Shown: one piece after another, positions 9,866 to 56,606 of the stretch
How the letters are laid out: each line of letters starts with the position of its first letter
How positions within the stretch are numbered: position 1 is the stretch's first letter
DNA from: a bacterium
GTDB lineage: Bacteria; Krumholzibacteriota; Krumholzibacteriia; LZORAL124-64-63
Reading direction: 5' to 3'
DNA: 64,000 nucleotides
NCBI GenBank assembly: GCA_031441465.1
Contig: JANOEP010000061.1
Location: forward strand, 1-64,000
The notes under the pieces: generated by a model
The model's input: the letters and a program-made list of their open reading frames with translations, nothing else
Databases searched by the model: none
What the model was told of the DNA's origin: nothing
Translations under genes and position numbers: made by a program

Positions 9866-9997
9866 TCACCTATGGTTACTTGATGTTAATTGTCAATAAA
9901 TCATGAAGATGCGATGGTTATGTCTTGATTTTCCGCCCCCCGGGTTCCTCTATTTGATCGTCTCTAGTTGATGTGGTTAAAACAGGACGGTCCACAC

Positions 9998-11983
9998 ATG
10001 AAGCGAAGCCTGTTATCCGCCGGCGCCACCCTCCTGCTGGCGGTGTTGCTGCTCGTTCCAGCCGGTCCGGCCCTCGCCTTGACGGCGGCCGACTGCGCCG
10101 ATTGTCACACCGGTTCCGGCGGCGACCCCGCCGAGGTCAACGCCGAGTCCATGGCCGGCAGCGTCCACGACGGTTTCGAGTGCACGGACTGCCATGCCGG
10201 CATCACGGAACTGCCCCACGACACCCTGTCGCCGGTCGACTGCGGCAGTTGCCACGGGGACGAGGCGGCCACCTACCAGGTCCACGGCCGCGGCGTGGTC
10301 GGCAAGTCGCCCTACATCCCGTTCTGCAAGGACTGCCACGGCACGCACGACATCCTGCCCTCGTCCGACCGGCACGCCCTGACCAACCCGATGAACCTGC
10401 CGGCGACCTGCGGCAAGTGCCACGAGGATTCGACCCTCGTCGCCGAAATCAACGTCAAGTTCAAGCACCCGATCCGCGTGTACAGCCAGAGCGTGCACGG
10501 CCGGGCGACGGCCGGCGGCATCCACCAGGCGGCGAGCTGCAATGACTGCCACAGCACCGGCGGCACCGCCCACATGATCCTGCCGCCGAGCGACATGCGC
10601 TCGACCATCGCCCACTTCAACATCCCGACCACCTGCGGCAAGTGCCACGGCGCCATCTCGCAGGACTACTGGGAGGGCATCCACGGCCAGATCACCGCCC
10701 GCGGCGAGGTGGACACGCCGGTCTGCACCACCTGCCACGGCGAGCACGGCATCCTGCCCACCGACGACCCGCGCTCTCCCGTGAGCCCCAACCGCATGGC
10801 CGAGGCGACCTGCACGCCCTGCCACGAGTCGGCGACCCTGAACGAGAAGTACGACCTGCCGACCGGCCGCCTGCAGTCGTTCGTGGACTCCTACCACGGG
10901 CTGAAGAGCAAGGCCGGCGACAAGCTGGTGGCGAACTGCGCCTCCTGCCACGGTGCCCACCTGATCCTGCCTTCGGCCGACCCGCGCTCCTCGGTCAACC
11001 AGGCCAACCTGCAGAAGACCTGCGGCCACTGCCACGCGGGCATCACCGCCGACGTCGCCAACCAGTCGATCCACGAGTCCGCCACCGGCCACCGGTCGGG
11101 TGTGGCCCACATCGTCCAGGTCCTTTACATCACGCTGATCGCGCTGGTGATCGGCGGCATGACGCTGCACTGGCTGATCGACCTGATCCGCCAGATCTAC
11201 CGCGTGATCCACGAGAAGCCCCAGGTCCGCCGCATGGATCCCAACGAGGTGTTCCAGCACACGGTGCTGGCCGTCTCCTTCACCACGCTGGTGGTCACCG
11301 GCTTCTCGCTGCGGTTCTACGATTCGTGGTGGAGTTCGCTGCTCTTCGGCCGCGAGGGCGGTTACGCCGTGCGCGGCTACATCCACCGCGGCGCCGCCGT
11401 GGTGATGATCCTGGGCGCCGTCTACCACGCGTTCTACCTGCTGACGCCCCGCGGGCGCGAGTTCCTGCGCGGCATGATGCCCAACTGGAACGATGCAAAG
11501 CAGCTGCTGCAGCGCACGAAGTACAACCTCGGCCTCAGCCGGGAAACGCCGCAGTTCGGCCGCTTCACCTACGTGGAGAAGGCCGAGTACTGGGCCCTGA
11601 TCTGGGGCACGGTCGTGATGGCGTTGACCGGCTTCGCGCTCTGGTTCGACAACACCGTCACGCACTGGTTCCCCAAGGGCACGATGGACGTCATCCTCGT
11701 GGTCCACTACTACGAGGCCTGGCTGGCGTTCCTGGCCATCCTGATCTGGCACATGTACTCGACGGTCTTCATGCCGGGCGTCTACCCGATGAACCCGTCA
11801 TGGATCACCGGCCTGATGCCGCAGCGCATGTTCGAGCACGAGCACCCCGCGGTCGAGCTGGTCGAGCATCGCCACACGGTGCGCACGCGGGTGCCGGCCG
11901 ACGAGCCGCTCATGGACGGGCGCGAGAAGGTGCAGCCCGGCACCCCGCGGCGCGACGGGCCGACGGAGCCGCCGCTGGTGTGA
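9998..11983 (+). CDS. Multiheme cytochrome c (11 CxxCH) fused to a cytochrome b membrane domain (CbcL-like)
   Basis: Signal peptide and 11 counted CxxCH motifs. C-terminal FdnI-like TM domain with His in FQH, IHR, VHYYEA and IWHMY, plus GRFTYVEKAEYWALIWG. Confidence 0.9.
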   Translation: MKRSLLSAGATLLLAVLLLVPAGPALALTAADCADCHTGSGGDPAEVNAESMAGSVHDGFECTDCHAGITELPHDTLSPVDCGSCHGDEAATYQVHGRGVVGKSPYIPFCKDCHGTHDILPSSDRHALTNPMNLPATCGKCHEDSTLVAEINVKFKHPIRVYSQSVHGRATAGGIHQAASCNDCHSTGGTAHMILPPSDMRSTIAHFNIPTTCGKCHGAISQDYWEGIHGQITARGEVDTPVCTTCHGEHGILPTDDPRSPVSPNRMAEATCTPCHESATLNEKYDLPTGRLQSFVDSYHGLKSKAGDKLVANCASCHGAHLILPSADPRSSVNQANLQKTCGHCHAGITADVANQSIHESATGHRSGVAHIVQVLYITLIALVIGGMTLHWLIDLIRQIYRVIHEKPQVRRMDPNEVFQHTVLAVSFTTLVVTGFSLRFYDSWWSSLLFGREGGYAVRGYIHRGAAVVMILGAVYHAFYLLTPRGREFLRGMMPNWNDAKQLLQRTKYNLGLSRETPQFGRFTYVEKAEYWALIWGTVVMALTGFALWFDNTVTHWFPKGTMDVILVVHYYEAWLAFLAILIWHMYSTVFMPGVYPMNPSWITGLMPQRMFEHEHPAVELVEHRHTVRTRVPADEPLMDGREKVQPGTPRRDGPTEPPLV

Positions 11984-12088: not shown

Positions 12089-12625
12089 TTACTTCGCGGC
12101 GGCCTCGGGCACCGGGTGCTTGATCAGGGCCCACATCTTGTCGTAGTCGAAAGCCTTGAAGGTCGGGCTCCCGGTGTTGTGGCACTTCACGCAGGTCTCC
12201 TTGCCGCCCATCTTCATGCCGGCGGCCATCGCGGCGGCGTGATCCTCCATGACGGCCTTGGACTTGTACTCGGAGCCGGCGCCGTGGCAGGCCTCGCAGC
12301 CCACGCCCTCCTCGGGCACCCACTTCGTGGCGGCCTCGAGCGCCACGCCCAGGAAGCCCTTCGTGGTGTGGCACTTCAGGCAGGCGGCCTCTTCCCAGGG
12401 ATTGCCCAGGCCCTTCTCCTTGGCGATGGCGATGGCCGCGGCGCCCTTCAGGGTGGCGAAGGCGCCGGCGTGCGCCGACTCGGTCCAGATCTTCGCCTGG
12501 TCGCCGGTCTTGACCTTGTGGCACATCACGCACTTGGGAGCGCCGATGATGGTGGGCTCGGCAGCCTGGGCGAGCGCGGCGCAGACCACCGTGAGCGCGA
12601 CCAGGACCAACAGGGACTTCTTCAT
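12089..12625 (-). CDS. Periplasmic tetraheme cytochrome c (c554-like)
   Basis: Signal peptide; CVMCH, CLKCH, CEACH, CVKCH; SAHAGAF and EGVGCEACHGAGS motifs. Confidence 0.88.
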   Translation of the reverse strand: MKKSLLVLVALTVVCAALAQAAEPTIIGAPKCVMCHKVKTGDQAKIWTESAHAGAFATLKGAAAIAIAKEKGLGNPWEEAACLKCHTTKGFLGVALEAATKWVPEEGVGCEACHGAGSEYKSKAVMEDHAAAMAAGMKMGGKETCVKCHNTGSPTFKAFDYDKMWALIKHPVPEAAAK

Positions 12626-12918: not shown

Positions 12919-14577
12919 ATGATCAAGTGCCCGGTCTTCGCCTGTATCTGCTTGCTCCTGTTGCCGCTTGCGGTGCAGGCCGAGCCCCAGTTCGCCTGGT
13001 CGTCGCTGCTGGACAGCGGCGCCGCGCTGGACGACAACGGTGCGGTCGTGGTCGGCCACATTTCGGGCGACGCCGTGGTGGCCGGCGTCAGCCACGACGG
13101 CATCGACGGTTCGGACATCCTCGTGCGGCGCCTGTCGGCCGCGGACGGCGGCCAGGTCTGGTCGCGCCGCATCCCGTCGTTCGACACCTCGTCCATGTCG
13201 GTCACCGACCTGGCGTGGGACCAGGCGGGTGACTTGATCGTGGCCGGGCATGTCCTGGGCTGCGTGGGGTGAGGCCATGGTGACGACATCGTCGTGCTGA
13301 AGCTCGACGATGCGACCGGGGAGGTTCTCTGGTCCCAGCTGTACGCCTCGCCGAACGCCGAAAACGATTCCGCCTACGCCCTGGCCCTGAACGGATCCGG
13401 GGACATCTTCATCGCCGGCCGCGTCAACGTCGCGGGCCGGCTGGACGAGATCGCGCTGCTGAAGTTCGCCAACGTCGACGGCGAACTGCTCTGGACGGCC
13501 TTCGACGGCGGCGCCGCCCGTCTCGATGACCGCGCTCTGGACGTGGCCGTCGGTCCCGACGGCGATCCCGTGGTGACCGGCCTGATCCAGAACGCCAACG
13601 GCACGGCTTCGCTGCTGACCGCCAAGTACGCCACCGCCGACGGCAGTCCGGTGTGGGCCGTCCTGACGACCGGATTGGTCAACGACGCCAGCGGCGACGG
13701 CTGGCTCGGCGTCGACGCCGCCGGCGACGTGCTGGTCGCCGGCAAGGCCTGGCATGCCTCGACCTCGTACGACGTGCTCTGCGCCAAACTCGACGGCGAT
13801 GACGGGCAGCAGCTCTGGCGCGTGGACTGGACCAACGGCACCCGCTCGGACGACCCCGGCGGCATGCTCGTGGACGCGGCCGGCGACCTGGTCGTGGTCG
13901 GCGTCACCGGCGGCGACTACCTGACGGTCAAGCTGAGCGGGGCCAACGGCTCGCGGCGGTGGCTGTCGACCTACAACGGCCCGCAGGGCTGGTACGACGT
14001 GGCCAACGGCGCGGCGTTCGGCTCCGGCGGCGAGATCCTGGTCACCGGCTTCAGCGACGGCACCGGCACCAGCTGGGACGTCGCGACGCTCGGCTACGAC
14101 CCGGCCACCGGCGCCCAGCGCTGGGTGCGGCGCTACGACGGCCCGGCCCACCTGACCGACGAAGCCCGGAGCCTCGTGCTCGCGCCCGGCGGCTCCCTGT
14201 ACGTGACCGGCTACGCCTACGGCGACGCGACCAGCATGGACCAGGTGGTGCTGGCGTATTCCCATCCCGACCTGACGGACGCCGGCGACCTGCCCCCCGC
14301 ACCGGAGCCGTTGGCGGTATACCCCAATCCCTTCAATCCGTCGACGGTCGTGACGTACCGGCTCGAGGCGGCGGCGGCGGTGACGCTCGCGGTCCACGAC
14401 CTCGCGGGTCGGCTGGTCGCCGTGATCGACGGCGGGCGGCGCGATGCGGGATGGCATCGGGCGAGTTGGGACGGTCGAGACGAACGGGGCCGAGCCGCGA
14501 CGAGCGGCACTTACTTCCTGCTTCTGACGACAGAAGACGGGTTCAGGCAGACCAGAACATTGACGTTGTTGAGATGA
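12919..14577 (+). CDS. Secreted beta-propeller repeat protein with FlgD/T9SS-like CTD; in-frame TGA at 13270-13272 (candidate selenocysteine in CxxU, or a nonsense mutation)
   Basis: ORFs ending at 13272 and resuming by 13294 are in the same frame, and the blade repeat (GD..VAG...D....K.....G..LW) continues across the TGA. Signal peptide at the start, PNPFNP...WDG at the end. Confidence 0.8.
13284..13314 (+). promoter_or_regulatory. Candidate bacterial SECIS element
   Basis: Stem CATCGTCG(13287-94)/CGACGATG(13305-12), U-U mismatch, GC/GC pairs, apical loop TGAA starting 26 nt after the UGA. Confidence 0.5.
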
Positions 14578-14995
14578 AGCAGGGAGATGATCGCCGCGGG
14601 TAATGCCATGCCCGAGAGGTTGACGGCGGGGACGTTAGCACGTGTCCGCCGGGCGAGCTGTTATCCAGAAAACAAGCGCCCGGCAACCGCCCACGCGCCA
14701 GATGCTGCTCCCATTGTCTGACAGTTACCCCCTACCGCGAGGCCACAGTCAGCCGCAGGCTCACTGTGGTTGTTGCGTTCGATGACGCATTATTTAATAT
14801 AAGACCATTATCGTAGCGTTAAGTGGTTATCATTTGTACAATCGGTCCAGGACAGGCAGGACCGTGAATCGAGCATTGAAAGGGCAGGTTCAGGCTCGAA
14901 GAGATGTGCATGGGAATCTCGATCCAGCGAGCTGGAGACGGAAGAAATTCAACTCACGTTTCATCTGGCTTCATGAGTGAAAGGTGCAGTGTTCA

Positions 14996-17374
14996 ATGAG
15001 AACCCGACATCTGGTGCTGATCGTTTGTGCTTTGTTTGGAGTTGGGATCGCCCATGCTAATGATCCGGTCACCTTTTCCTGGCGCTACTACCGCCCCGGC
15101 AACACCGGTATCCAGGGCGACTACAACGAATCGATCTGGATCGACGCCGACAACGATCCATGGATCGCCGGCTACAACCCGGTCGCCGAAGAGGGTGGCG
15201 TTGCCAAGTTCGTCCAGGCTGATCATCGCTGGATCAATGTTTCCAACATCGATTACCCGGTGTTCGGGAGTGCCAACGACGTCGGCACCAGCCGAGTAAC
15301 CGACATGGTCGCCGATGGACTGGGAAACCTGTGGCTCGGCACCTGGCGTGGCGTGCTGCGCATGAATCTCGCGGTCGGGCCGAGTTCACTCGTGATGTTC
15401 GGCCCCGGGAACTCGGCCCTTCCGGGCGGGATCACGGCAGACATCACGCGCGCGCCGGACGGGTCGATCTGGATCTCCGCAGGATCCACAGACTGGGCTG
15501 GCGGCGGCTTGACCCGATACGATCCCGCAACCAACGAGTGGTCGCATATCGACGGACATGGCGGACTCAAAATCGCGACCCAACCCAAACCCGGGGGCGG
15601 CTACTACCTTTGGTCTTCCGGCGAGGGATTTACCCCGATGGAGCGGTGGGACAGTTCCACGCAGACCTGGAACAGCTACCCGGCCACTTCGGGCAACCCG
15701 TCACACCTGATTTCGCTCGACTCGGCCGATGACGCCGGCAACGTCTGGATGCAACGGTGGATCGGGGTTCAGGGCGAGGAAACCCTTGATTGCCTCCGCC
15801 CGGACGGTACCTGGGTCACGCCGCCGCTGCCGCCGGTGCACCCGCAGATCGTGGCCGCCGGGGCGCGGGCGTTCGGCACGATGCAGGCCCTCATGGTGAA
15901 CGGGTACGGGCGTCTTTACCGCTTCAACGGCACCTCGTGGACCGACCTGGGACCGGAGCCGTACAGCGGGTTCATCCAGGATCTGGACATCGACGCCGCG
16001 GGCAACATCTGGTTGTGCGGCACGGGCACGGGCGGAGCATTCCGGCGCGACGCCGTTACCGGCATTTGGCAGCGCTACCGCGTCACCAACACCAGCCAGT
16101 TCGATTTTTTCAACAATGACGTCGCCATCGACCCGTATACGGGCGATGTCTACGCGTGCGCCAATGCCTCAGCGGATTTCGGGGGCATGGTCAAGTTCGA
16201 CGGGACTCGGTGGACCGGGTTCGTCAACGATGCGGGCTATGGGTTGACCGGACCGTGGCCTTGGCCGGGAGCACCTCAAAGTGAGGCCGTCTACGTTCGC
16301 CCGTCCAATGGTCACGTCGTGGCCAACCCGATCAATCAATTCACGCACGAGTTCGACGGGACTACGTGGACCGATATCCCCGGCGGACCGGACCAGATGA
16401 AGCAATACGTTGAAGACTCGCTCGGTCGGTTGTGGGGCATCGGTCACTACGGTGGCTTGGGGTTCTTTGAAAACGGCGGCTACACCACCGTCGGCGCCGG
16501 CGTCGGAACCAGTTATCTCCGACGCGATCCGGATCGCGTCGGAACGATCTGGTGCACTGCCGACCTGGAAATCCTGCGCACCGACGGAGCTTACAGCTTC
16601 TCACGCACGATCGAGGACTTTCCTGGTCCAGCGAGTGTCGGTTCATCCTTCCGTGGTCTTGCCGTCGATCACAACGGCATCGCCTGGGTCGGCACTGCGG
16701 CTTTCCAGAGCACGGGAAGCACGCTCATCCGACTCGACGCCAACACCGGCACCTACCAGATATGGGAACACGATCTTGGTTGGCCCTTCCCTGGTGAGCA
16801 TGTTTACCCCGTGACAGTCACGCCCGATGGACGGGTGTGGATGACCTACGATAGTGAGTATCCGTCAACCGACGCCGGATTGTTGTGGTGGGATGGCACA
16901 AACATCGGTGTTTTTCCCGCACCGCCCAACGGCGGATGGCAGTGGGGTGGGCTGCCGCACGCGGGGATCCTGGATCTGGAGGTCAAAGTTGTCCCGGGCG
17001 GCTACGAACTGTGGATGAGCTGCATCAGCCGCGGGCTCGCGGTACTGGAAGTGCAGGTGCCAAATCCGACCGCGATCGGTTCGGGTGAAGTTCCCGCTGA
17101 ATTGGCACTGCAGTCGAACTATCCGAATCCCTTCAACCCCCGCACGATGATCCACTTCACACTCGACCGCGAGCAGCAGGCCGACCTCACGCTGTTTGAC
17201 GCGCGGGGTCGCCGGGTGCGCACGCTCCTGCACGGCCCCGCGAGTGTGGGCGGGCATGCGGTAGCCTGGGACGGGCTCGATGAAAACGGCCACGCCTGCG
17301 CGGCGGGTGTGTACCTGGCGCGGCTCCGTGGCGAAACGGCCGCCGCGACCGCTAAGCTGATGCTGGTGCGATGA
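14996..17374 (+). CDS. Large secreted beta-propeller protein (two-component-regulator-propeller-like repeats) with FlgD/T9SS-like CTD
   Basis: Signal peptide; repeats D..GN.W.GT and FDGT.W; NYPNPFNPRT...WDGLDENG. Less GC-biased codon usage than neighbours. Confidence 0.82.
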   Translation: MRTRHLVLIVCALFGVGIAHANDPVTFSWRYYRPGNTGIQGDYNESIWIDADNDPWIAGYNPVAEEGGVAKFVQADHRWINVSNIDYPVFGSANDVGTSRVTDMVADGLGNLWLGTWRGVLRMNLAVGPSSLVMFGPGNSALPGGITADITRAPDGSIWISAGSTDWAGGGLTRYDPATNEWSHIDGHGGLKIATQPKPGGGYYLWSSGEGFTPMERWDSSTQTWNSYPATSGNPSHLISLDSADDAGNVWMQRWIGVQGEETLDCLRPDGTWVTPPLPPVHPQIVAAGARAFGTMQALMVNGYGRLYRFNGTSWTDLGPEPYSGFIQDLDIDAAGNIWLCGTGTGGAFRRDAVTGIWQRYRVTNTSQFDFFNNDVAIDPYTGDVYACANASADFGGMVKFDGTRWTGFVNDAGYGLTGPWPWPGAPQSEAVYVRPSNGHVVANPINQFTHEFDGTTWTDIPGGPDQMKQYVEDSLGRLWGIGHYGGLGFFENGGYTTVGAGVGTSYLRRDPDRVGTIWCTADLEILRTDGAYSFSRTIEDFPGPASVGSSFRGLAVDHNGIAWVGTAAFQSTGSTLIRLDANTGTYQIWEHDLGWPFPGEHVYPVTVTPDGRVWMTYDSEYPSTDAGLLWWDGTNIGVFPAPPNGGWQWGGLPHAGILDLEVKVVPGGYELWMSCISRGLAVLEVQVPNPTAIGSGEVPAELALQSNYPNPFNPRTMIHFTLDREQQADLTLFDARGRRVRTLLHGPASVGGHAVAWDGLDENGHACAAGVYLARLRGETAAATAKLMLVR

Positions 17375-17460: not shown

Positions 17461-18117
17461 CTATTTTACCAGGGTCACGGTCCGGGAGCGTGCGCCATCC
17501 GGTGTCTCGAGTCGGACCAGGTAGGAACCCGCGGCCGCCGGCCTCCCATTCTCGTCGCTGCCGTCCCACTCCGCCCGGTGCGCCCCCGCCGGCAGGTCGC
17601 CCAGGTGCAGGCTGCGCACGCTACGGCCGTCGAGGCCGAAGACACGCAGGGTGGCGGAACCCGCCGTGGCCAGTTCGAACGCGATCACGGTGCGGGGATT
17701 GAACGGGTTGGGGAACGGCGCCAGCAACCTCGGCCCGGGACCGGCGACATCGTTCCCCACGCCCACGCTCAGATCCGGCTGGACGTGCACGATCCCGGTC
17801 ATGCCCATGAGCAGGTGGGGGCGGCAGAAGTAGGGCACGTCGCCGGCGACGGCGAAGACGTACTGGAAAGACGGATTGGCCAAGTTGAGCGGCGCGTCGA
17901 ACAGCGTGCCCACGTTGGGGTCCGCCGTCCCGGTGCCGTTGGTGACGGTGTGGGAGAGGCTGGTGCGCACCCAGCGTACGGTGTCGCCTTCGGTGACGGT
18001 GATGTTGTTGGGAACGAACGTCGTGCCGCTCTGCTGGACGACGAAGACGGCCGCCGCAGCGGGCATGGCGACGGCGAGGGTCGCGGCAGCGACCAGGACG
18101 CGGATCCGGGATTTCAT
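17461..18117 (-). CDS. Type-1 blue copper (plastocyanin-like) protein with FlgD/T9SS-like CTD
   Basis: Signal peptide; FVPNNITV.EGDTVRW; Cu ligands SHTVT and YFCRPHLLMGM; C-terminal PNPFNP...WDG. Confidence 0.88.
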   Translation of the reverse strand: MKSRIRVLVAAATLAVAMPAAAAVFVVQQSGTTFVPNNITVTEGDTVRWVRTSLSHTVTNGTGTADPNVGTLFDAPLNLANPSFQYVFAVAGDVPYFCRPHLLMGMTGIVHVQPDLSVGVGNDVAGPGPRLLAPFPNPFNPRTVIAFELATAGSATLRVFGLDGRSVRSLHLGDLPAGAHRAEWDGSDENGRPAAAGSYLVRLETPDGARSRTVTLVK

Positions 18118-33258: not shown

Positions 33259-33963
33259 TCACCGCCGGTGCATCACGACCAGGATGAACACAACGACCAT
33301 CGACAGGTCAGCCGCCAAGTGGGCGAAATAGACAGCCCGCCAGCTACCCAACCTCGTGGCCAGGTAGGACCACAGCAGACCCGTCGCTGCAATGAATCCT
33401 GCGCGCACGAGCGCCATGGACCACGGGAACAACGCTGCGAGCAGCACCACATGGTAGAAGCCGAATCCTGCCGTGGCGAGGGCCAGTCCGCGGCGATCCC
33501 CGAAGGTCTCGCGGCAACGCAGTGTTGCCTGGCCTCGCCACCACCATTCCTCGAGCAGCGGATTCAGTCCCACGAACAGAACGAACGCAACCAAGGGATC
33601 GGCGGGGTCGAGACCGAGGGCGGCCACGCGCGCTTGGTAGTCCGCGATATCGCCCAGCCACGGCCGCACGAACAGATAGGCCGCCAGGAAGACCGGACCG
33701 AAAACCGCGGCCAGCGTGATTTCGAGTCGTACCTGCCGCCGCGCCGGCGGCGGATGAAAGGGCAACCCGCCACGGTCGCGCAGGGGCCGGGCGCCCAGCA
33801 GCAGACAGGGGACGAGCAGGCAGCCGCCCAGGAGGTAGAGATAGAACGTGACCGCGATGCTCTCGAAGTGAAACAGACCGAGTGCGCCGAGACCGCTCGG
33901 CGCGGCCAGCGCCGTCAACAGTCGTAGACGCGGCCACCACGCGGAAGGACTCGCCGCCGGCAC
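33259..33963 (-). CDS. CPBP/Abi family intramembrane glutamic endopeptidase
   Basis: EEWWWRG, FGFYH, AHLAAD motifs; multiple TM helices. Confidence 0.8.
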   Translation of the reverse strand: MPAASPSAWWPRLRLLTALAAPSGLGALGLFHFESIAVTFYLYLLGGCLLVPCLLLGARPLRDRGGLPFHPPPARRQVRLEITLAAVFGPVFLAAYLFVRPWLGDIADYQARVAALGLDPADPLVAFVLFVGLNPLLEEWWWRGQATLRCRETFGDRRGLALATAGFGFYHVVLLAALFPWSMALVRAGFIAATGLLWSYLATRLGSWRAVYFAHLAADLSMVVVFILVVMHRR

Positions 33964-46338: not shown

Positions 46339-47651
46339 ACATCCGCAACCTAGCGATCATTGTCGTCTTGGGGCTTCTGCCGGCCGCCGCGCTCGTGTCC
46401 TGCGACCGGTCTTCCCCGCCGCCGCCGGCCACGGCGGAATCCCCGGACCACGACCACGAAGCCGCGGAGGCGGAATCGGAGGCCTCCGACCTCGACCGCC
46501 CGGTCGAGGATCTGTTCGCCGCCGACTGCGAACACCAGGTCAAGACGTTCGCCTGCGATGAGTGCCGCTACGAAGTCGGCGTCGTGCGCGTGCCGGCGAG
46601 CCTGGTCGAGGGCAAGCTGGTCGAGACCGCACAGGTCGAGCGGCGCGCCGTGGATGTCGCGGTCCCGCTGACCGGCGAGGTCCGCTTCGACGAGCGGCGC
46701 GTGGGGCACGTCAGCCCGCTCGTAGAAGGCGTCGTGTCGGCGGTCCATGTCAAGCTCGGCGACCGGGTCCGGCGCGGGCAGGCGCTCGTCGAACTCGAGT
46801 GCACGGCGGTCGGGCAGGCGCAGGCCGAGTACCTCGCGGCGCAGGGGATGCTCGACCTCTCCCGTCGCAACCTGGAACGGGTCTCCGACCTGAGACGGGA
46901 AGCCATCGCCTCGGAGAAGGAATTCCTGCTGGCGCAGCAGGAAGCCGGAGCCGCGCAGATCCGCGCCGACGGGGCCCGCGGCCAGCTCGCGCGCTTCGGC
47001 ATGTCGGAGGCGGCGGTGAGCGCCCTCGCCAGCGGCGACGGCCTGGGTCGGCTGACCCTGCGCGCCCCGTTGGACGGCGCGGTGCTGGCCATGCACGCCG
47101 TGCCCGGGGAAGTGGCCGGGACCGACGCGTCCCTGTTCACGGTCGGCGACCACGCCGTCGTCTGGGTGTGGGCGGACCTCTACGAAGGCGACATCGCGGG
47201 CGTCTCCCGCGCGCAGGCGACGCAGAAGCTGGCGGCGGCGGTCTCGGTCAAGGCCTATCCGGGCGAATCGTTCGCCGGGACCGTGGACCTCGTCAGCCCG
47301 TCCATGGACGAGTCCTCGCGCACGGTGAAGGTGCGCGTGGAGGTGCCGAACCCGGACGGCCGTCTGCTGGCGGGCATGTTCGCCGACGTGGCGCTGCAGC
47401 TGCCTGGGGGCGAGGCGGTCCTGGCCGTGCCGCCGGCGGCCGTCCTCGACGACGAGGGCCGGGAGTTCGTGTTCGTCCACCATCACGACGACTACTTCGT
47501 GCGCCGGCCGGTGAAGACCGGCCGCGCGGCCGCGGGTTGGGTCGAGGTCCTGTCCGGGCTCGCGGCGGGGCAGACCGTGATGACCGAGGGCGCCTTCCTG
47601 CTGAAATCCGACGTGCTGCGCGCCAAGATGGGCGCCGGCTGCGCTGACTAA
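46335..47651 (+). CDS. czcB: RND periplasmic adaptor (CzcB/CusB-like)
   Basis: Lipobox; G.V....VKLGDRV..GQ, LRAPLDG, RTVKVRV...NPDGRL.AGMF, GAF.LKS. Confidence 0.88.
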   Translation: MNIRNLAIIVVLGLLPAAALVSCDRSSPPPPATAESPDHDHEAAEAESEASDLDRPVEDLFAADCEHQVKTFACDECRYEVGVVRVPASLVEGKLVETAQVERRAVDVAVPLTGEVRFDERRVGHVSPLVEGVVSAVHVKLGDRVRRGQALVELECTAVGQAQAEYLAAQGMLDLSRRNLERVSDLRREAIASEKEFLLAQQEAGAAQIRADGARGQLARFGMSEAAVSALASGDGLGRLTLRAPLDGAVLAMHAVPGEVAGTDASLFTVGDHAVVWVWADLYEGDIAGVSRAQATQKLAAAVSVKAYPGESFAGTVDLVSPSMDESSRTVKVRVEVPNPDGRLLAGMFADVALQLPGGEAVLAVPPAAVLDDEGREFVFVHHHDDYFVRRPVKTGRAAAGWVEVLSGLAAGQTVMTEGAFLLKSDVLRAKMGAGCAD

Positions 47652-47665
47652 CAACGGGAGCGATC

Positions 47666-50600
47666 ATGCGTACCGTGACCTTGCTGCTGAACAACCGTCT
47701 CCTGGTGCTGCTGGCGACGGCGGTGCTGGTCGCCGCCGGCGTGGTCGCCTGGCTGCACCTGCCCATCGACGCCTTTCCGGACGTGACCAACACGCAGGTG
47801 GTGATCATCTCCCAGGCCCCGGGTTTCGCCGCGGTCGACGTGGAACAGCGGGTCAGCTACCCGATCGAACAGGTCATGCGCGGCCTGCCGCGCGTGCAGC
47901 AGGTGCGCTCCCTGTCGCGGGCCGGCCTGTCGCAGGTGGTGATCGTGTTCGAGGACGGGGCCGACACCTACTGGACGCGGCAGGTGGTGTTCGAGCGCCT
48001 GGACGCGGCCCGCGAGCAGCTGCCGCCCGGCGTCGAGCCCGAGCTGGGCCCCATCTCGACCGGCCTGGGCGAGATCTACCAGTACACGCTCGAAGGCGAC
48101 GACGAGACCGCGATGGAGCTGCGGTCGATCCAGGACTGGCTCGTCGCCCCCTGGCTGAAGCCGATCCCCGGCGTGAACGAGGTCAACAGCTTCGGCGGCG
48201 AGGTGAAGCAGTACCAGGTCCTGGTCTCGCCCGAGATGCTGCTGAAGTACGGCCTGACCGTGAACGACGTCGTCGACGCCGTCGAGCAGGGCAACGCCAA
48301 CTCCGGCGGCGGCGTGGTCGTGCGCGGCTGGGAGCAGATGTACCTGCGCGGCGTGGGGCTGCTGCGCGACATCCCGGATCTCGAGAACATCGTGCTGAAG
48401 GCCGCGGACGGGGCGCCCGTCTACCTGCGGGACGTCGCGGGGGTGGTCATCGGCGCCGAGCCCCGGCAGGGCGCCGTCTCCCGCGACGGCAAGGGCGAGG
48501 TCGTGGCCGGCATGATCATCATGCTCAAAGGCGAGAACGCCAAGGAGGTGGTCGGCCGGGTCCAAAACGCGGTCGCGAAGCTCCAGGGGGCGCTGCCCGA
48601 GGGCGTCCGCCTCAACGTTTTCTACGACCGCACCTCGCTGATCGAGGCCTGCATCCACACCGTGATCAAGGCGCTGCTCGAGGGCGGGATCTTCGTCATC
48701 CTGGTGCTGTTCCTGTTCGTCGCCGAGCTGCGCTCCGCGCTGATCGTCGTGGTCTCCCTGCCGCTCACCTTCCTGGTGACCTTCATCCTCATGGGCTCCG
48801 CGGGGATCACCTCCAACCTCATGAGCCTCGGCGGCCTGGCGTTCTCCGTGGGCATGGTCGTGGACGCGTCCATCGTGGTGGTGGAGAATTCCCGCCGCCA
48901 CCTCGCGCACCTGACCGATTCCGCCTCGAGGAGGCGGGTCGTCGCCGAGGCCGTCGTCGAGGTGGCGAAGCCCGTCGCCTTCTCGGTGCTGATCATCGCG
49001 GTCATCCTGGTGCCGCTGTTCACGCTGCAGGGGATCGAGGGCAAGATGTTCGCCCCGCTGGCCGGGACGATGCTCATCGCCCTGCTGGTCTCGCTCGTGG
49101 TGGCGTTCACGATCATCCCGGTCCTCGGCGAGCGCTTCCTGGGTCAGGGCCCCGAGCGGGAGTTCGGCTTCATCCGCCGCTTCCACCGCGGCTACGTGCG
49201 CCTGCTCAGCCGCGCCGTGCGGCGTCCCGCGCTGACGCTCGGGATCTCGGGCGGTGTGCTCGTCGCCTCGCTGGCGCTCATCCCGCTCATGGGCACCGAG
49301 TTCATGCCGCCGCTGGACGAGGGGGCGCTCGCCGTGAACGTGGTGCGGCTGCCCAACGCTTCGCTGGACGGCTCGGTGCGCGTCTCCAGCTTCATCGAGC
49401 AGCGCCTGCGGAAGTTCCCCGAGGTCGAGACCGTGGTCAGCAAGACGGGCCGTGCCGAGATTTCGGAGGACCCGATGGGGCCGGAGCAGACCGACGTCTT
49501 CATCATGCTCAAGCCGCGCAAGGAGTGGGACGCCGGGCGCGACAAGGACGAACTCGTGGACGCCATCCAGAAGGACCTCTCCGAGATCCCGGGGTTGCGC
49601 TTCTCGTTTTCGCAGCCGATCGCGCTGCGGGTGAACGAACTCATCTCCGGCGTGAAGAGCGACCTCGCGATCAAGGTCTTCGGCCCCGACCTCGAGGTGC
49701 TGAAGTCGTTCGCGGACCGCGCGGCCGCCGTGCTGCAGGGGATCGAGGGGGCGAGGGACGTGAAGGTGGAGCAGGTGTCCGGCATGTCGCAGATCGACGT
49801 GGTGATCGACCGCCAGGCCGTGGCGAGGCACGGCATCAAGATCGCCGACGTCAACGCCGCCATCGAGACGGCGGTCGCCGGGAAGTTGGCCACGACCCTG
49901 ATCGAGGGGCAGCGGCGCATCGCCGTGGTCGTGCGGTTCCCGGAGGCGGCGCGCGGCAGCATCCCGGTGCTCGAGCGCCTGCTGATCACAGCCCCGGGCG
50001 GGGAGCGGGTGCCGCTGGCGCAGATCGCGGCCTTCGAGGTGGTCGAGGCGCCGGCGCAGGTGAGCCGTGAGAACGGCATGCGGCGCGTCGTGGCCGAAGC
50101 CAACATCCGCGGCCGCGACCTCGGCGGTTTCGTGGGTGAGGTCCAGACGCGCCTCGCGCCGCTGGTGGAGGAACTCCCGATCGGCTACTACGTCGAGTAC
50201 GGCGGTCAGTTCGAGAACCAGCAGCGGGCCATGCGCCAGCTCTCCATCGTGGTGCCGGTGGCGCTCCTGCTCATCATGGTCCTGCTCACCATGGCGCTCG
50301 GCTCGATCTGGAACGCCCTGCTGGTGCTGCTCAACCTCCCGTTCGCACTCATCGGGGGTGTGATCGCCGTCGTGGTCTTCCGGATGCCCGTATCGGTGTC
50401 CGCGGCGGTGGCCTTCATCGTCCTGCTCGGCATCGCCGTGCAGAACGGCGTCGTGCTTGTGGCGTTCTTCCGCCAGCTCCGGGAGCGGGGCGAGTCGGTG
50501 GCCGACACGGTGATCAAGGGCTGCGACCTGCGCTTCCGGCCGCTGCTGATGACCGCGCTCGCGAGCTTCATCGGGCACCTGCCCATGCTCTACGCCACCG

Positions 50601-55199: not shown

Positions 55200-56606
<1,407 letters not shown>

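Follow-up and report, generated by a model that had tools for sequence, protein, structure and literature searches.

Does a single TGA codon inside a long bacterial reading frame end one protein and leave a second to begin behind it, or is it read through and, if so, as which amino acid? The question is raised by a gene on a 64,000-nucleotide stretch of DNA (the window) from a member of the Krumholzibacteriota. The window is part of contig JANOEP010000061.1 (C61 below) of assembly GCA_031441465.1, a genome of 3.49 Mb in 74 contigs that is 96.8% complete. The gene is predicted to encode an exported beta-propeller protein, and the TGA in question is its codon 118. From the comparisons described here, it appears very likely that the gene represents a genuine, unannotated selenoprotein family, in which the UGA would be decoded as selenocysteine (Sec) by SelA, SelB, SelD and tRNA-Sec. 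It would be new as a family, as a fold and in its location, within a kind of system that is already known. The coordinates of the features are collected in Table 1.

The reading frame runs from the ATG at 12919 to the TGA at 14575-14577 and holds 552 sense codons, with the TGA at 13270-13272 (codon 118) as its sole internal stop. A preliminary description of the window, made by a model from the letters and a list of open reading frames (ORFs), had seen this single frame, and a re-reading from 12919 to 14577 agrees with it. The ORF list under translation table 11 likewise gives the two pieces that were then reported, the first ending at 13272 and the second resuming at a GTG at 13294, 7 codons past the TGA. 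Around codon 118 the peptide would read LIVAGHVLG-C-V-G-U-G-H-G-D-D-IVVLKLDD, where U is the proposed Sec. The Cys that had been pointed out three residues ahead of the TGA is Cys115, and it is kept in all 69 orthologues described below, at 3 residues before the Sec position in 64 of them and at 4 residues in 5.

Sequencing reads bear on whether the TGA could be an error of assembly, and the codon is kept in them. A contig of the probable source run, which is not an independent run, covers the whole stretch with no difference. An independent DNA run from another study gave a contig over 13200-13404 with 8 differences, none of which is in the TGA. Two RNA libraries from one study gave gap-free contigs over 13051-14120 and 12962-13766 from a relative that is about 91% identical; among the differences listed for them, only one (13278 T>C, synonymous) falls within 13235-13339, and at least 27 fall within 13101-13234.

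The distribution of the gene was assessed by a six-frame search with query residues 1-460 against all 208 genomes of the class, which are the same 208 that a search at the level of the phylum covers. There were 70 matches at E<=1e-30, in 68 of the genomes. All except one contain exactly one in-frame stop, which is a TGA; the seventieth match is a 31%-identical paralogue without any stop. In the remaining 69 sequences, which we treat as orthologues and which are 34-91% identical to the query, the TGA occupies one and the same aligned position. The preliminary description had proposed to look at this codon in homologues, and none of them has Trp, Gly or Arg there. Directly after the Sec position comes G[HQEAGT]G(G)DD, with the first G replaced by D or S in five of the 69. 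In a protein alignment of 20 sequences the upstream Cys is invariant, as is the downstream G-D-D; a T-G-E-V-L-W motif also lies downstream, and judged by these alignments coding conservation continues across the UGA. The family is found in two of nine GTDB families, designated f1 (56 of 90 genomes) and f5 (11 of 12); the same search detected no member among 105 genomes of the other seven families (0/105). One genome (G165) carries two tandem copies (C8:45341-46666 and 47030-48376), 43% and 35% identical to the query. Both retain the TGA and the two hairpins considered below, and they differ around the codon, one having CGGTU and the other CGTU.

Whether homologues would show TGA or a second Cys at this position had also been posed as a question: the TGA is conserved, and the CxxC form was found in none of the orthologues. 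More widely, a Cys-form orthologue is absent from the 208 genomes and from the single-stretch hits of a library of 1.84 billion representative proteins. The hits from that library (172,015 at E<=0.001) were dominated by generic SBBP-repeat proteins, and its five single-stretch hits all begin at query residue 127 or later. Five paralogues, with 23-30% identity in the best aligned segment, are without the Cys, without Sec and without the extra loop residues. On these alignments, the CxxU loop was inserted in this group of orthologues alone, and the family appears to depend strictly on Sec.

The genome also has the means to decode UGA as Sec, a point that the preliminary description had marked for checking. 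It contains tRNA-Sec (67.8 bits, gathering score 47; anticodon tca according to ARAGORN), selA (437 bits, cut-off 268), selB (359 bits, cut-off 242) and selD (343 bits, cut-off 125), all above curated cut-offs. Across the phylum selA was detected in 200 of 208 genomes, including all 125 that are of high quality. Sec use is a trait of the whole lineage, and consequently the phyletic pattern cannot discriminate carriers from non-carriers of the propeller gene.

Other Sec genes of the genome provide a background for the propeller gene. The selD gene itself (C25:35277-36200) has one in-frame TGA. Among 32 selD matches in 30 genomes, 29 have an in-frame stop, i.e. are selenoproteins; the three stop-free matches (G027, and one of two copies in each of G013 and G036) look like Cys-type or other forms, and G013 and G036 thus hold both types. 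A crude scan of the genome for in-frame TGA codons, based on G + C content at third codon positions, gave 69 candidates, most of them looking like adjacent genes in the same frame. Five were examined besides the propeller gene, and two were retained. One is a UshA-like gene on contig C66 (TGA at 66082) that encodes a signal peptide, then ...GKFEPCGUHGNP... and, behind this motif, a CxxCH; among NCBIfam models it is best matched by NF041198 (158 bits, below the cut-off of 275, with the sequence cut by the end of the locus). The other is a HesB/IscA-like gene on contig C49 (TGA at 33568) with the motif FQGFGUGGP and a tail rich in Gly and Cys (...GGGSCGSGGCG), for which the best match is NF038090 (55 bits, below the cut-off of 85). 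Two candidates were rejected: the TGA at C48:14546 closes the gene for a hydrogenase large subunit, behind which its protease is encoded, and the sequence around C10:218923 looks non-coding. The scan also flagged a TGA at window position 56604 (+) and, beyond the window, at C61 77185 and 87613, each with coding-like sequence on both sides. A search of the genome with TIGR01553 at E<=1e-20 gave no formate dehydrogenase alpha subunit (FdhA), so that the Sec trait would be maintained by SelD, the HesB-like and UshA-like proteins and the propeller.

Incorporation of Sec in bacteria depends on an RNA structure behind the UGA, the bacterial Sec insertion sequence (bSECIS). For the 69 genes, 93 nt around the TGA were aligned, and RNAalifold predicts two hairpins, H1 and H2. 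Pairs were counted on an extended version of these hairpins (H1, columns 33-40 with 48-55; H2, columns 57-64 with 70-77), giving 16 pairs and 1072 cells. Standard pairs occupy 94.3% of these cells, compared with 35-56% in controls whose 3' partners were slid by 1 to 3 columns, and 8 of the 16 pairs have changed on both sides. The observed values were reached by 0 of 500 shuffles on any of five measures; related sequences may beat every shuffle without structure, and the slid controls and repeated switches carry more weight.

In H1, 89.7% of cells are paired and 5 of 8 pairs have changed on both sides. Pair 34-54, for example, is GC in 42 sequences, AU in 17, GU in 6 and CG in 1, and a change from Val to Ile (GTC to ATC) is accompanied by a synonymous change from GGC to GGT 20 nt downstream. 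In the rest of the family H1 pairs in the register 13290-13297 with 13305-13312 (alignment columns 33-40 and 48-55); in the window's own genus, GTC repeats allow an 8-bp H1 in the register beginning at 13287-13294, and the family register has only 6 bp there. The preliminary description had claimed a SECIS-like hairpin behind the TGA. The hairpin exists and has comparative support; it is only the first of two conserved hairpins, and single-sequence folding does not support it.

H2 is the more uniform, with 98.9% of its cells paired and a minimum-free-energy fold that has a 9-bp stem and a GGU triloop. Its pair 64-70 is GC in 56 sequences and CG in 11, and pair 63-71 is GU in 42 and AU in 25. 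At pair 58-76 (window 13315/13333) the counts are AU 58, UA 6, UG 2 and GU 1; U-A or U-G turns up in the genera g5, g34 and g36, as well as in some but not all members of g19, g39 and g17, a distribution that implies at least six separate switches of this pair. The synonymous codon choice is also constrained. In a codon alignment of the 69 genes, synonymous entropy is at its minimum, 0.24 bits, in the six-codon windows that start at codons 132 and 133 and cover H2, the lowest of 174 windows; the next-lowest value outside the H2 region is 0.63 bits. The H2 codons are nearly fixed (ACC in 57/58, GAG in 57/57, GTT in 55/56 and CTC in 58/58), although of all Val codons in these genes just 9% are GTT. 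As judged from this codon usage, the H2 region is under selection on the RNA itself, beyond the peptide T-G-E-V-L-W, and the pairing patterns indicate that the predicted two-hairpin structure directly 3' of the UGA is under RNA-level selection as a whole.

Which of the two hairpins SelB would bind is less clear-cut. In the published bSECIS consensus the stem has 4-16 bp, the loop has 3-9 nt and a G, usually as G[G|U], at its first or second position, and the distance from UGA to loop is 16-37 nt (PMC13188914). H2 has a canonical A-GGU-U apex, but at 49 nt behind the UGA. Loops of the same kind stand behind the UGA codons of other Sec genes in the genome: the selD hairpin is GGCCC-GGA-GGGCC with its GG at +20, the HesB-like gene has GGCUC-UGGAC-GAGCC with GG at +29, and the UshA-like gene has GUGGCCC-GGC-GGGCCAC, a hairpin 24 nt behind the UGA with GG at +31. 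In the selD loci of relatives, 15 of 27 have, in a fixed register, a GGN triloop at +20 to +22 on a stem of at least 4 uninterrupted pairs, and minimum-free-energy folds of several of the other 12 give a triloop hairpin in a shifted register. The likeness of the GGU loop of H2 to these GGN loops makes H2 look like a SelB-binding loop, and on balance we lean somewhat towards H2 as the lineage's SelB-binding element, displaced by about 33 nt relative to the selD hairpins. If H1 (26 nt, +17 to +42) were folded as a side branch, H2 would be brought from +53 to an effective position of about +27.

The roles could be distributed differently, with the protein still a selenoprotein, H1 the SelB-binding SECIS, and H2 conserved for ribosome pausing, for mRNA stability or through constraint on T-G-E-V-L-W. 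The stem of H1 (8 bp), the size of its 7-nt loop UGAAGCU, the G in second place and the spacing of 25 nt all agree with the consensus, and the covariation at pair 34-54 fits such a role. Its loop, however, has GA where G[G|U] is usual, unlike the loops of GGN type found with the other Sec genes of this organism; the loop sequence varies among relatives (CUGAAG, CUCAAG, GCGAAG, CUGCGAG and others), the register slips in the window's own genus, and it is H2 that is nearly invariant even at synonymous sites. We regard this distribution of roles as possible, if rather doubtful. A comparison with the E. coli fdhF-type SECIS (PMC13188914) brings out both aspects. That element is also a stem-loop in the coding region 3' of the UGA; A-GGU-U of H2 corresponds to its N1-G-G-N-N2, where N1 and N2 can pair, and H1 lies within its spacing of 16-37 nt. 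Unlike it, the element described here would comprise two consecutive conserved hairpins, and it is the second, beginning 44 nt past the UGA and peaking near +53, that has the canonical loop.

The protein itself can be described from its sequence and from a predicted structure. At the N-terminus a hydrophobic leader, MIKCPVFACICLLLLPLAVQA|EP, was read by eye, and AlphaFold2 (AF2) predicts a low-confidence helix at residues 6-18. The AF2 model, calculated from an alignment of 20 orthologues, has a mean predicted local distance difference test score (pLDDT) of 83.9 and a predicted TM-score of 0.74. It contains 32 strands arranged as eight four-stranded blades, then a disordered linker (453-473) and an immunoglobulin (Ig)-like sandwich (476-550). 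The Sec loop (residues 114-123) lies in blade 2 between strands 106-113 and 124-129. The preliminary description had put this loop at about 3 residues longer than its neighbours, which the model bears out or shows to be an underestimate: it has 10 residues and is the longest of its kind, the equivalent loops in the other seven blades having 2-7. It is probably flexible, since pLDDT in the model is below 50 at residues 119-121. The model is all-beta, with the motif in a loop between two strands, and is thus not a thioredoxin-like fold.

Structural searches place the protein among propellers of the SBBP/PQQ kind. Foldseek matches include the CylK C-terminal domain (best E 8e-17), BamB, tetrathionate hydrolase and PQQ dehydrogenases at 13-22% identity. 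In Pfam there was no match to PF06739 or PF13360 at E<=0.1, and only the C-terminal FlgD_ig domain was seen; PF13360 is precomputed for some 427-aa orthologue fragments. The NCBIfam model NF047494 for an SBBP lipoprotein gives a weak match of 50 bits against a cut-off of 400. At the other end of the protein, the secretion-type C-terminal domain (CTD) that had been proposed is matched above cut-off by both PF13860 (41 bits, cut-off 27) and TIGR04183 (28.1 bits, cut-off 23), the latter pointing to the type IX secretion system (T9SS). Two components of this system, SprA and PorU, were looked for in the genome: SprA matches sum to 470.8 bits (cut-off 200), and a full-length PorU-like match reaches 403 bits, just below the cut-off of 420. 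From these matches, export of the propeller by a T9SS is plausible.

The C-terminal domain is widespread in this genome. A genome-wide search gave 112 matches to the protein, of which 111 cover only the C-terminal part of FlgD_ig/T9SS type, and this count points to what may be a very large repertoire of T9SS cargo. Two such CTD proteins are encoded directly downstream of the propeller gene, at 14984-17374 (+) and 17464-17904 (-); one of them is a protein of 796 aa that weakly resembles the two-component-regulator propeller repeat.

A 2026 review lists 119 prokaryotic selenoprotein families and subfamilies (PMC13188914, Table 1), and among them is no propeller, SBBP or T9SS-CTD protein, in a comparison that covered this table and left the family table of BSepDB (PMC13326102) outside. 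The terms 'propeller', 'secret...' and 'signal peptide' are absent from the main text of the same review. A full-text literature search gave no paper joining a selenoprotein with SBBP. Judged by title and abstract, papers on selenocysteine and type IX secretion included nothing related, and those retrieved on beta-propeller selenoproteins with a SECIS, as far as their entries show, included none on bacterial proteins. NCBIfam release 20 has no model specific to this protein. With eight blades in the AF2 model, a secretion-type CTD and no counterpart in the catalogue, the earlier suggestion of an exported Sec-containing propeller, a fold not known for selenoproteins, is strengthened. What public protein collections hold of the family is fragments of 427 aa (one of 397 aa) that start past the TGA, named 'PQQ-binding-like beta-propeller repeat protein' or 'FlgD immunoglobulin-like domain containing protein'.

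The closest known systems share different parts of this arrangement. The CxxU selenoproteins listed in the review (SelW-like, AhpD-like, GrdA and the FCYXU-type TonB-dependent receptor NF049945; PMC13188914) likewise have one UGA-encoded Sec with a Cys three residues upstream and a hairpin directly downstream, and the FCYXU receptor is a cell-envelope protein as well. Their folds are thioredoxin-like, AhpD or beta-barrel, in contrast to the predicted eight-bladed propeller with a T9SS sorting domain, for which no Cys-form orthologue was found. The UshA-like PCGU protein (NF041198) of the same genome resembles the propeller in being exported with a signal peptide, in having Sec near a Cys in a glycine-rich loop, and in its GG-loop hairpin; His-Gly follows the Sec in both motifs (P-C-G-U-H-G and G-C-V-G-U-G-H-G). 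It differs in its metallophosphoesterase fold, its CxU spacing and a hairpin at the usual distance (GG at +31). In fold, the nearest relatives are the CylK C-terminal domain (7ron), BamB (3prw) and tetrathionate hydrolase (6l8a), which are propellers with four-stranded blades (Foldseek E from 8e-17 to 1e-9, query-normalised TM-score 0.40-0.52). The repeat pattern ...D..G.hhhhG......D.hh.Kh...G..hW is like that of SBBP/PQQ proteins. Sequence identity to them is only 13-22%, and none of these three proteins is a selenoprotein.

Could the TGA be a true stop? It would then end a secreted fragment of 117 residues, followed by a separate protein of 427 residues starting from the GTG at 13294, or the gene would be a decaying pseudogene. 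Gene callers do produce proteins of 427 aa, the library fragments all start at or after query residue 127, and in the window's genome the GTG is at hand 7 codons after the TGA. Set against this, the internal codon is TGA in 69 of 69 genes while the real stops of the same genes vary (TAG in 30, TGA in 16 and TAA in 9 of the 55 genes in which they were seen). Few residues of the protein are as well conserved as the seven between TGA and GTG (G-x-G-D-D...), the break would fall inside blade 2 of a closed eight-bladed propeller, and the 3' part would be without a signal peptide yet has a secretion CTD. Decay is excluded by conservation over two families at 34-91% identity. A true stop or a pseudogene is hardly credible in view of these patterns. 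Recoding of the UGA as something other than Sec, through hairpin-stimulated near-cognate read-through that inserts Trp, Cys or Arg and gives a full-length protein without selenium, is also very improbable. Structures behind a stop could favour read-through, the distance of H2 exceeds that of a canonical SECIS, and there is no Cys homologue to indicate that a chalcogen is needed at the site. Nevertheless, the complete machinery for Sec is present in almost all genomes of the phylum, the Cys conserved at -3 or -4 gives the common CxxU motif, and the loop of H2 copies those behind the UGA codons of the selD, HesB-like and UshA-like genes. A site at which any residue would do should, furthermore, show a sense codon somewhere among 69 orthologues that range from 34 to 91% identity.

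Decoding of the UGA as Sec is the reading that we prefer, and several observations weigh against it or against parts of it. The apex of H2, at 49 nt, falls outside the 16-37 nt of the consensus (PMC13188914), and in 11 of 69 sequences its loop is AGUUG instead of AGGUU; we infer the role of H2 only from the likeness of its loop and its conservation. Taken alone, H1 folds no better than chance (z = -0.55, with 55 of 200 shuffles at least as good), so that its standing beyond chance comes from the comparison with other genomes. The lack of any Cys-form orthologue means that the classical Sec/Cys pair is missing; such a pair is the search criterion of prediction pipelines and not a requirement for Sec. 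The genomes are related metagenome-assembled genomes, and counts such as 69 of 69 are not independent. The contigs from RNA libraries are a weak hint of expression and no proof of it, as DNA can occur in such libraries. Finally, the neighbourhood of the gene is not conserved past five genera and gives little help for any specific function.

Table 1. Features of the propeller gene and its neighbourhood, in window coordinates.
Feature	Position	Strand	Details
Proposed selenoprotein gene, whole	12919..14577	+	552 codons and terminal TGA, read through at codon 118
In-frame TGA, proposed selenocysteine codon 118	13270..13272	+	same aligned column in 69/69 orthologues
Cys115 codon TGC, proposed Sec partner in CxxU motif	13261..13263	+	upstream Cys kept in 69/69 orthologues
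Hairpin H1	13287..13312	+	CATCGTCG (13287-13294) / CGACGATG (13305-13312), inner GC/GC, UGAA loop
Hairpin H2	13314..13334	+	stem GACCGGGG(A)/(U)CUCUGGUC, GGU apex 13323-13325; proposed SelB-binding part of SECIS
Probable Sec-type signal peptide, residues 1-21 (...AVQA|EP)	12919..12981	+	read by eye
Predicted eight-bladed SBBP/PQQ-like beta-propeller, residues 24-448, 32 strands	12988..14262	+	AF2, Foldseek
C-terminal Ig-like FlgD_ig / T9SS type A sorting domain, residues 476-550	14344..14568	+	profiles, AF2
Cytochrome c554-like multihaem protein, divergent	12089..12625	-	Pfam PF13435, 58 bits
Multihaem cytochrome c7/c3-like and cytochrome b561 fusion, upstream	9968..11983	+	Pfam

Genes for multihaem cytochromes lie upstream of the propeller gene in the window. 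Neighbours were counted over 70 loci, many of them with flanks too short to tell. The small cytochrome adjoins the selenoprotein gene in 17 of the 70, all of them from the five closest genera (at least 47% identity), and the C-terminal part of the cytochrome fusion was seen in 14. The fusion ORF joins a multihaem N-terminal part to a b561 (Ni_hydr_CYTB) membrane part, an unusual electron conduit in one polypeptide, and it is conserved beside the selenoprotein gene in the closest genera. At 17 non-syntenic loci no shared neighbour was found in 1.5-kb flanks by Pfam searches of the longest flanking ORFs, many of which have no Pfam match and may be spurious in GC-rich DNA. Neighbours at such distant loci include genes for cation-efflux proteins of the CDF family in three f5 genomes, an ArsR-type helix-turn-helix protein, a rhodanese and a methyltransferase. 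An assignment of function from the CDF, ArsR and rhodanese neighbours was considered and rejected as too weak.

A possible course of events can be outlined for the protein. Sec-dependent translation would yield one exported protein of 552 residues, which the signal peptide would take across the inner membrane and a T9SS would deliver to the cell surface by means of the C-terminal domain. There the 8-bladed propeller would expose, between strands C and D of its second blade, a flexible loop with the motif C-x-x-U-G-x-G-D-D, and this loop may form a selenenylsulfide redox centre, or a centre that binds soft metals or metalloids. A role at the surface in redox reactions or in the binding of soft metals or metalloids is suggested only by the chemistry of C-x-x-U-G-H-G-D-D, together with weak hints from the neighbourhood. 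The full picture is a possibility, though less likely than not: a strictly Se-dependent T9SS surface protein, the first beta-propeller selenoprotein, with a new, bipartite SECIS made of a GGU hairpin and a spacer hairpin. In the window's clade it would act beside multihaem cytochromes, either catalysing redox reactions outside the cell or binding a chalcogen, metal or metalloid.

Prokaryotic selenoproteins that have been catalogued are mostly thioredoxin-like proteins or enzymes with metal cofactors. Sec in the loop of a propeller that is carried to the surface would place it in a fold in which it has not been seen, in a phylum that is uncultured and found in sediment, groundwater and sludge, and would mean that these bacteria spend selenium outside the cell. 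In practical terms, the annotation that now splits the gene could be put right for 68 species or more. An element of two hairpins calls into question the rule of 16-37 nt that is built into SECIS-based gene finders, which may explain why the family was missed. That the Sec codon is kept by every one of the 69 orthologues is an argument that sulfur cannot take the place of selenium at this site, which is unusual and would make the family a case for studying what Sec does beyond Cys. With a possibly non-canonical two-hairpin SECIS and an absence of Cys forms, the family would be more than a routine addition to the catalogue of selenoproteins.

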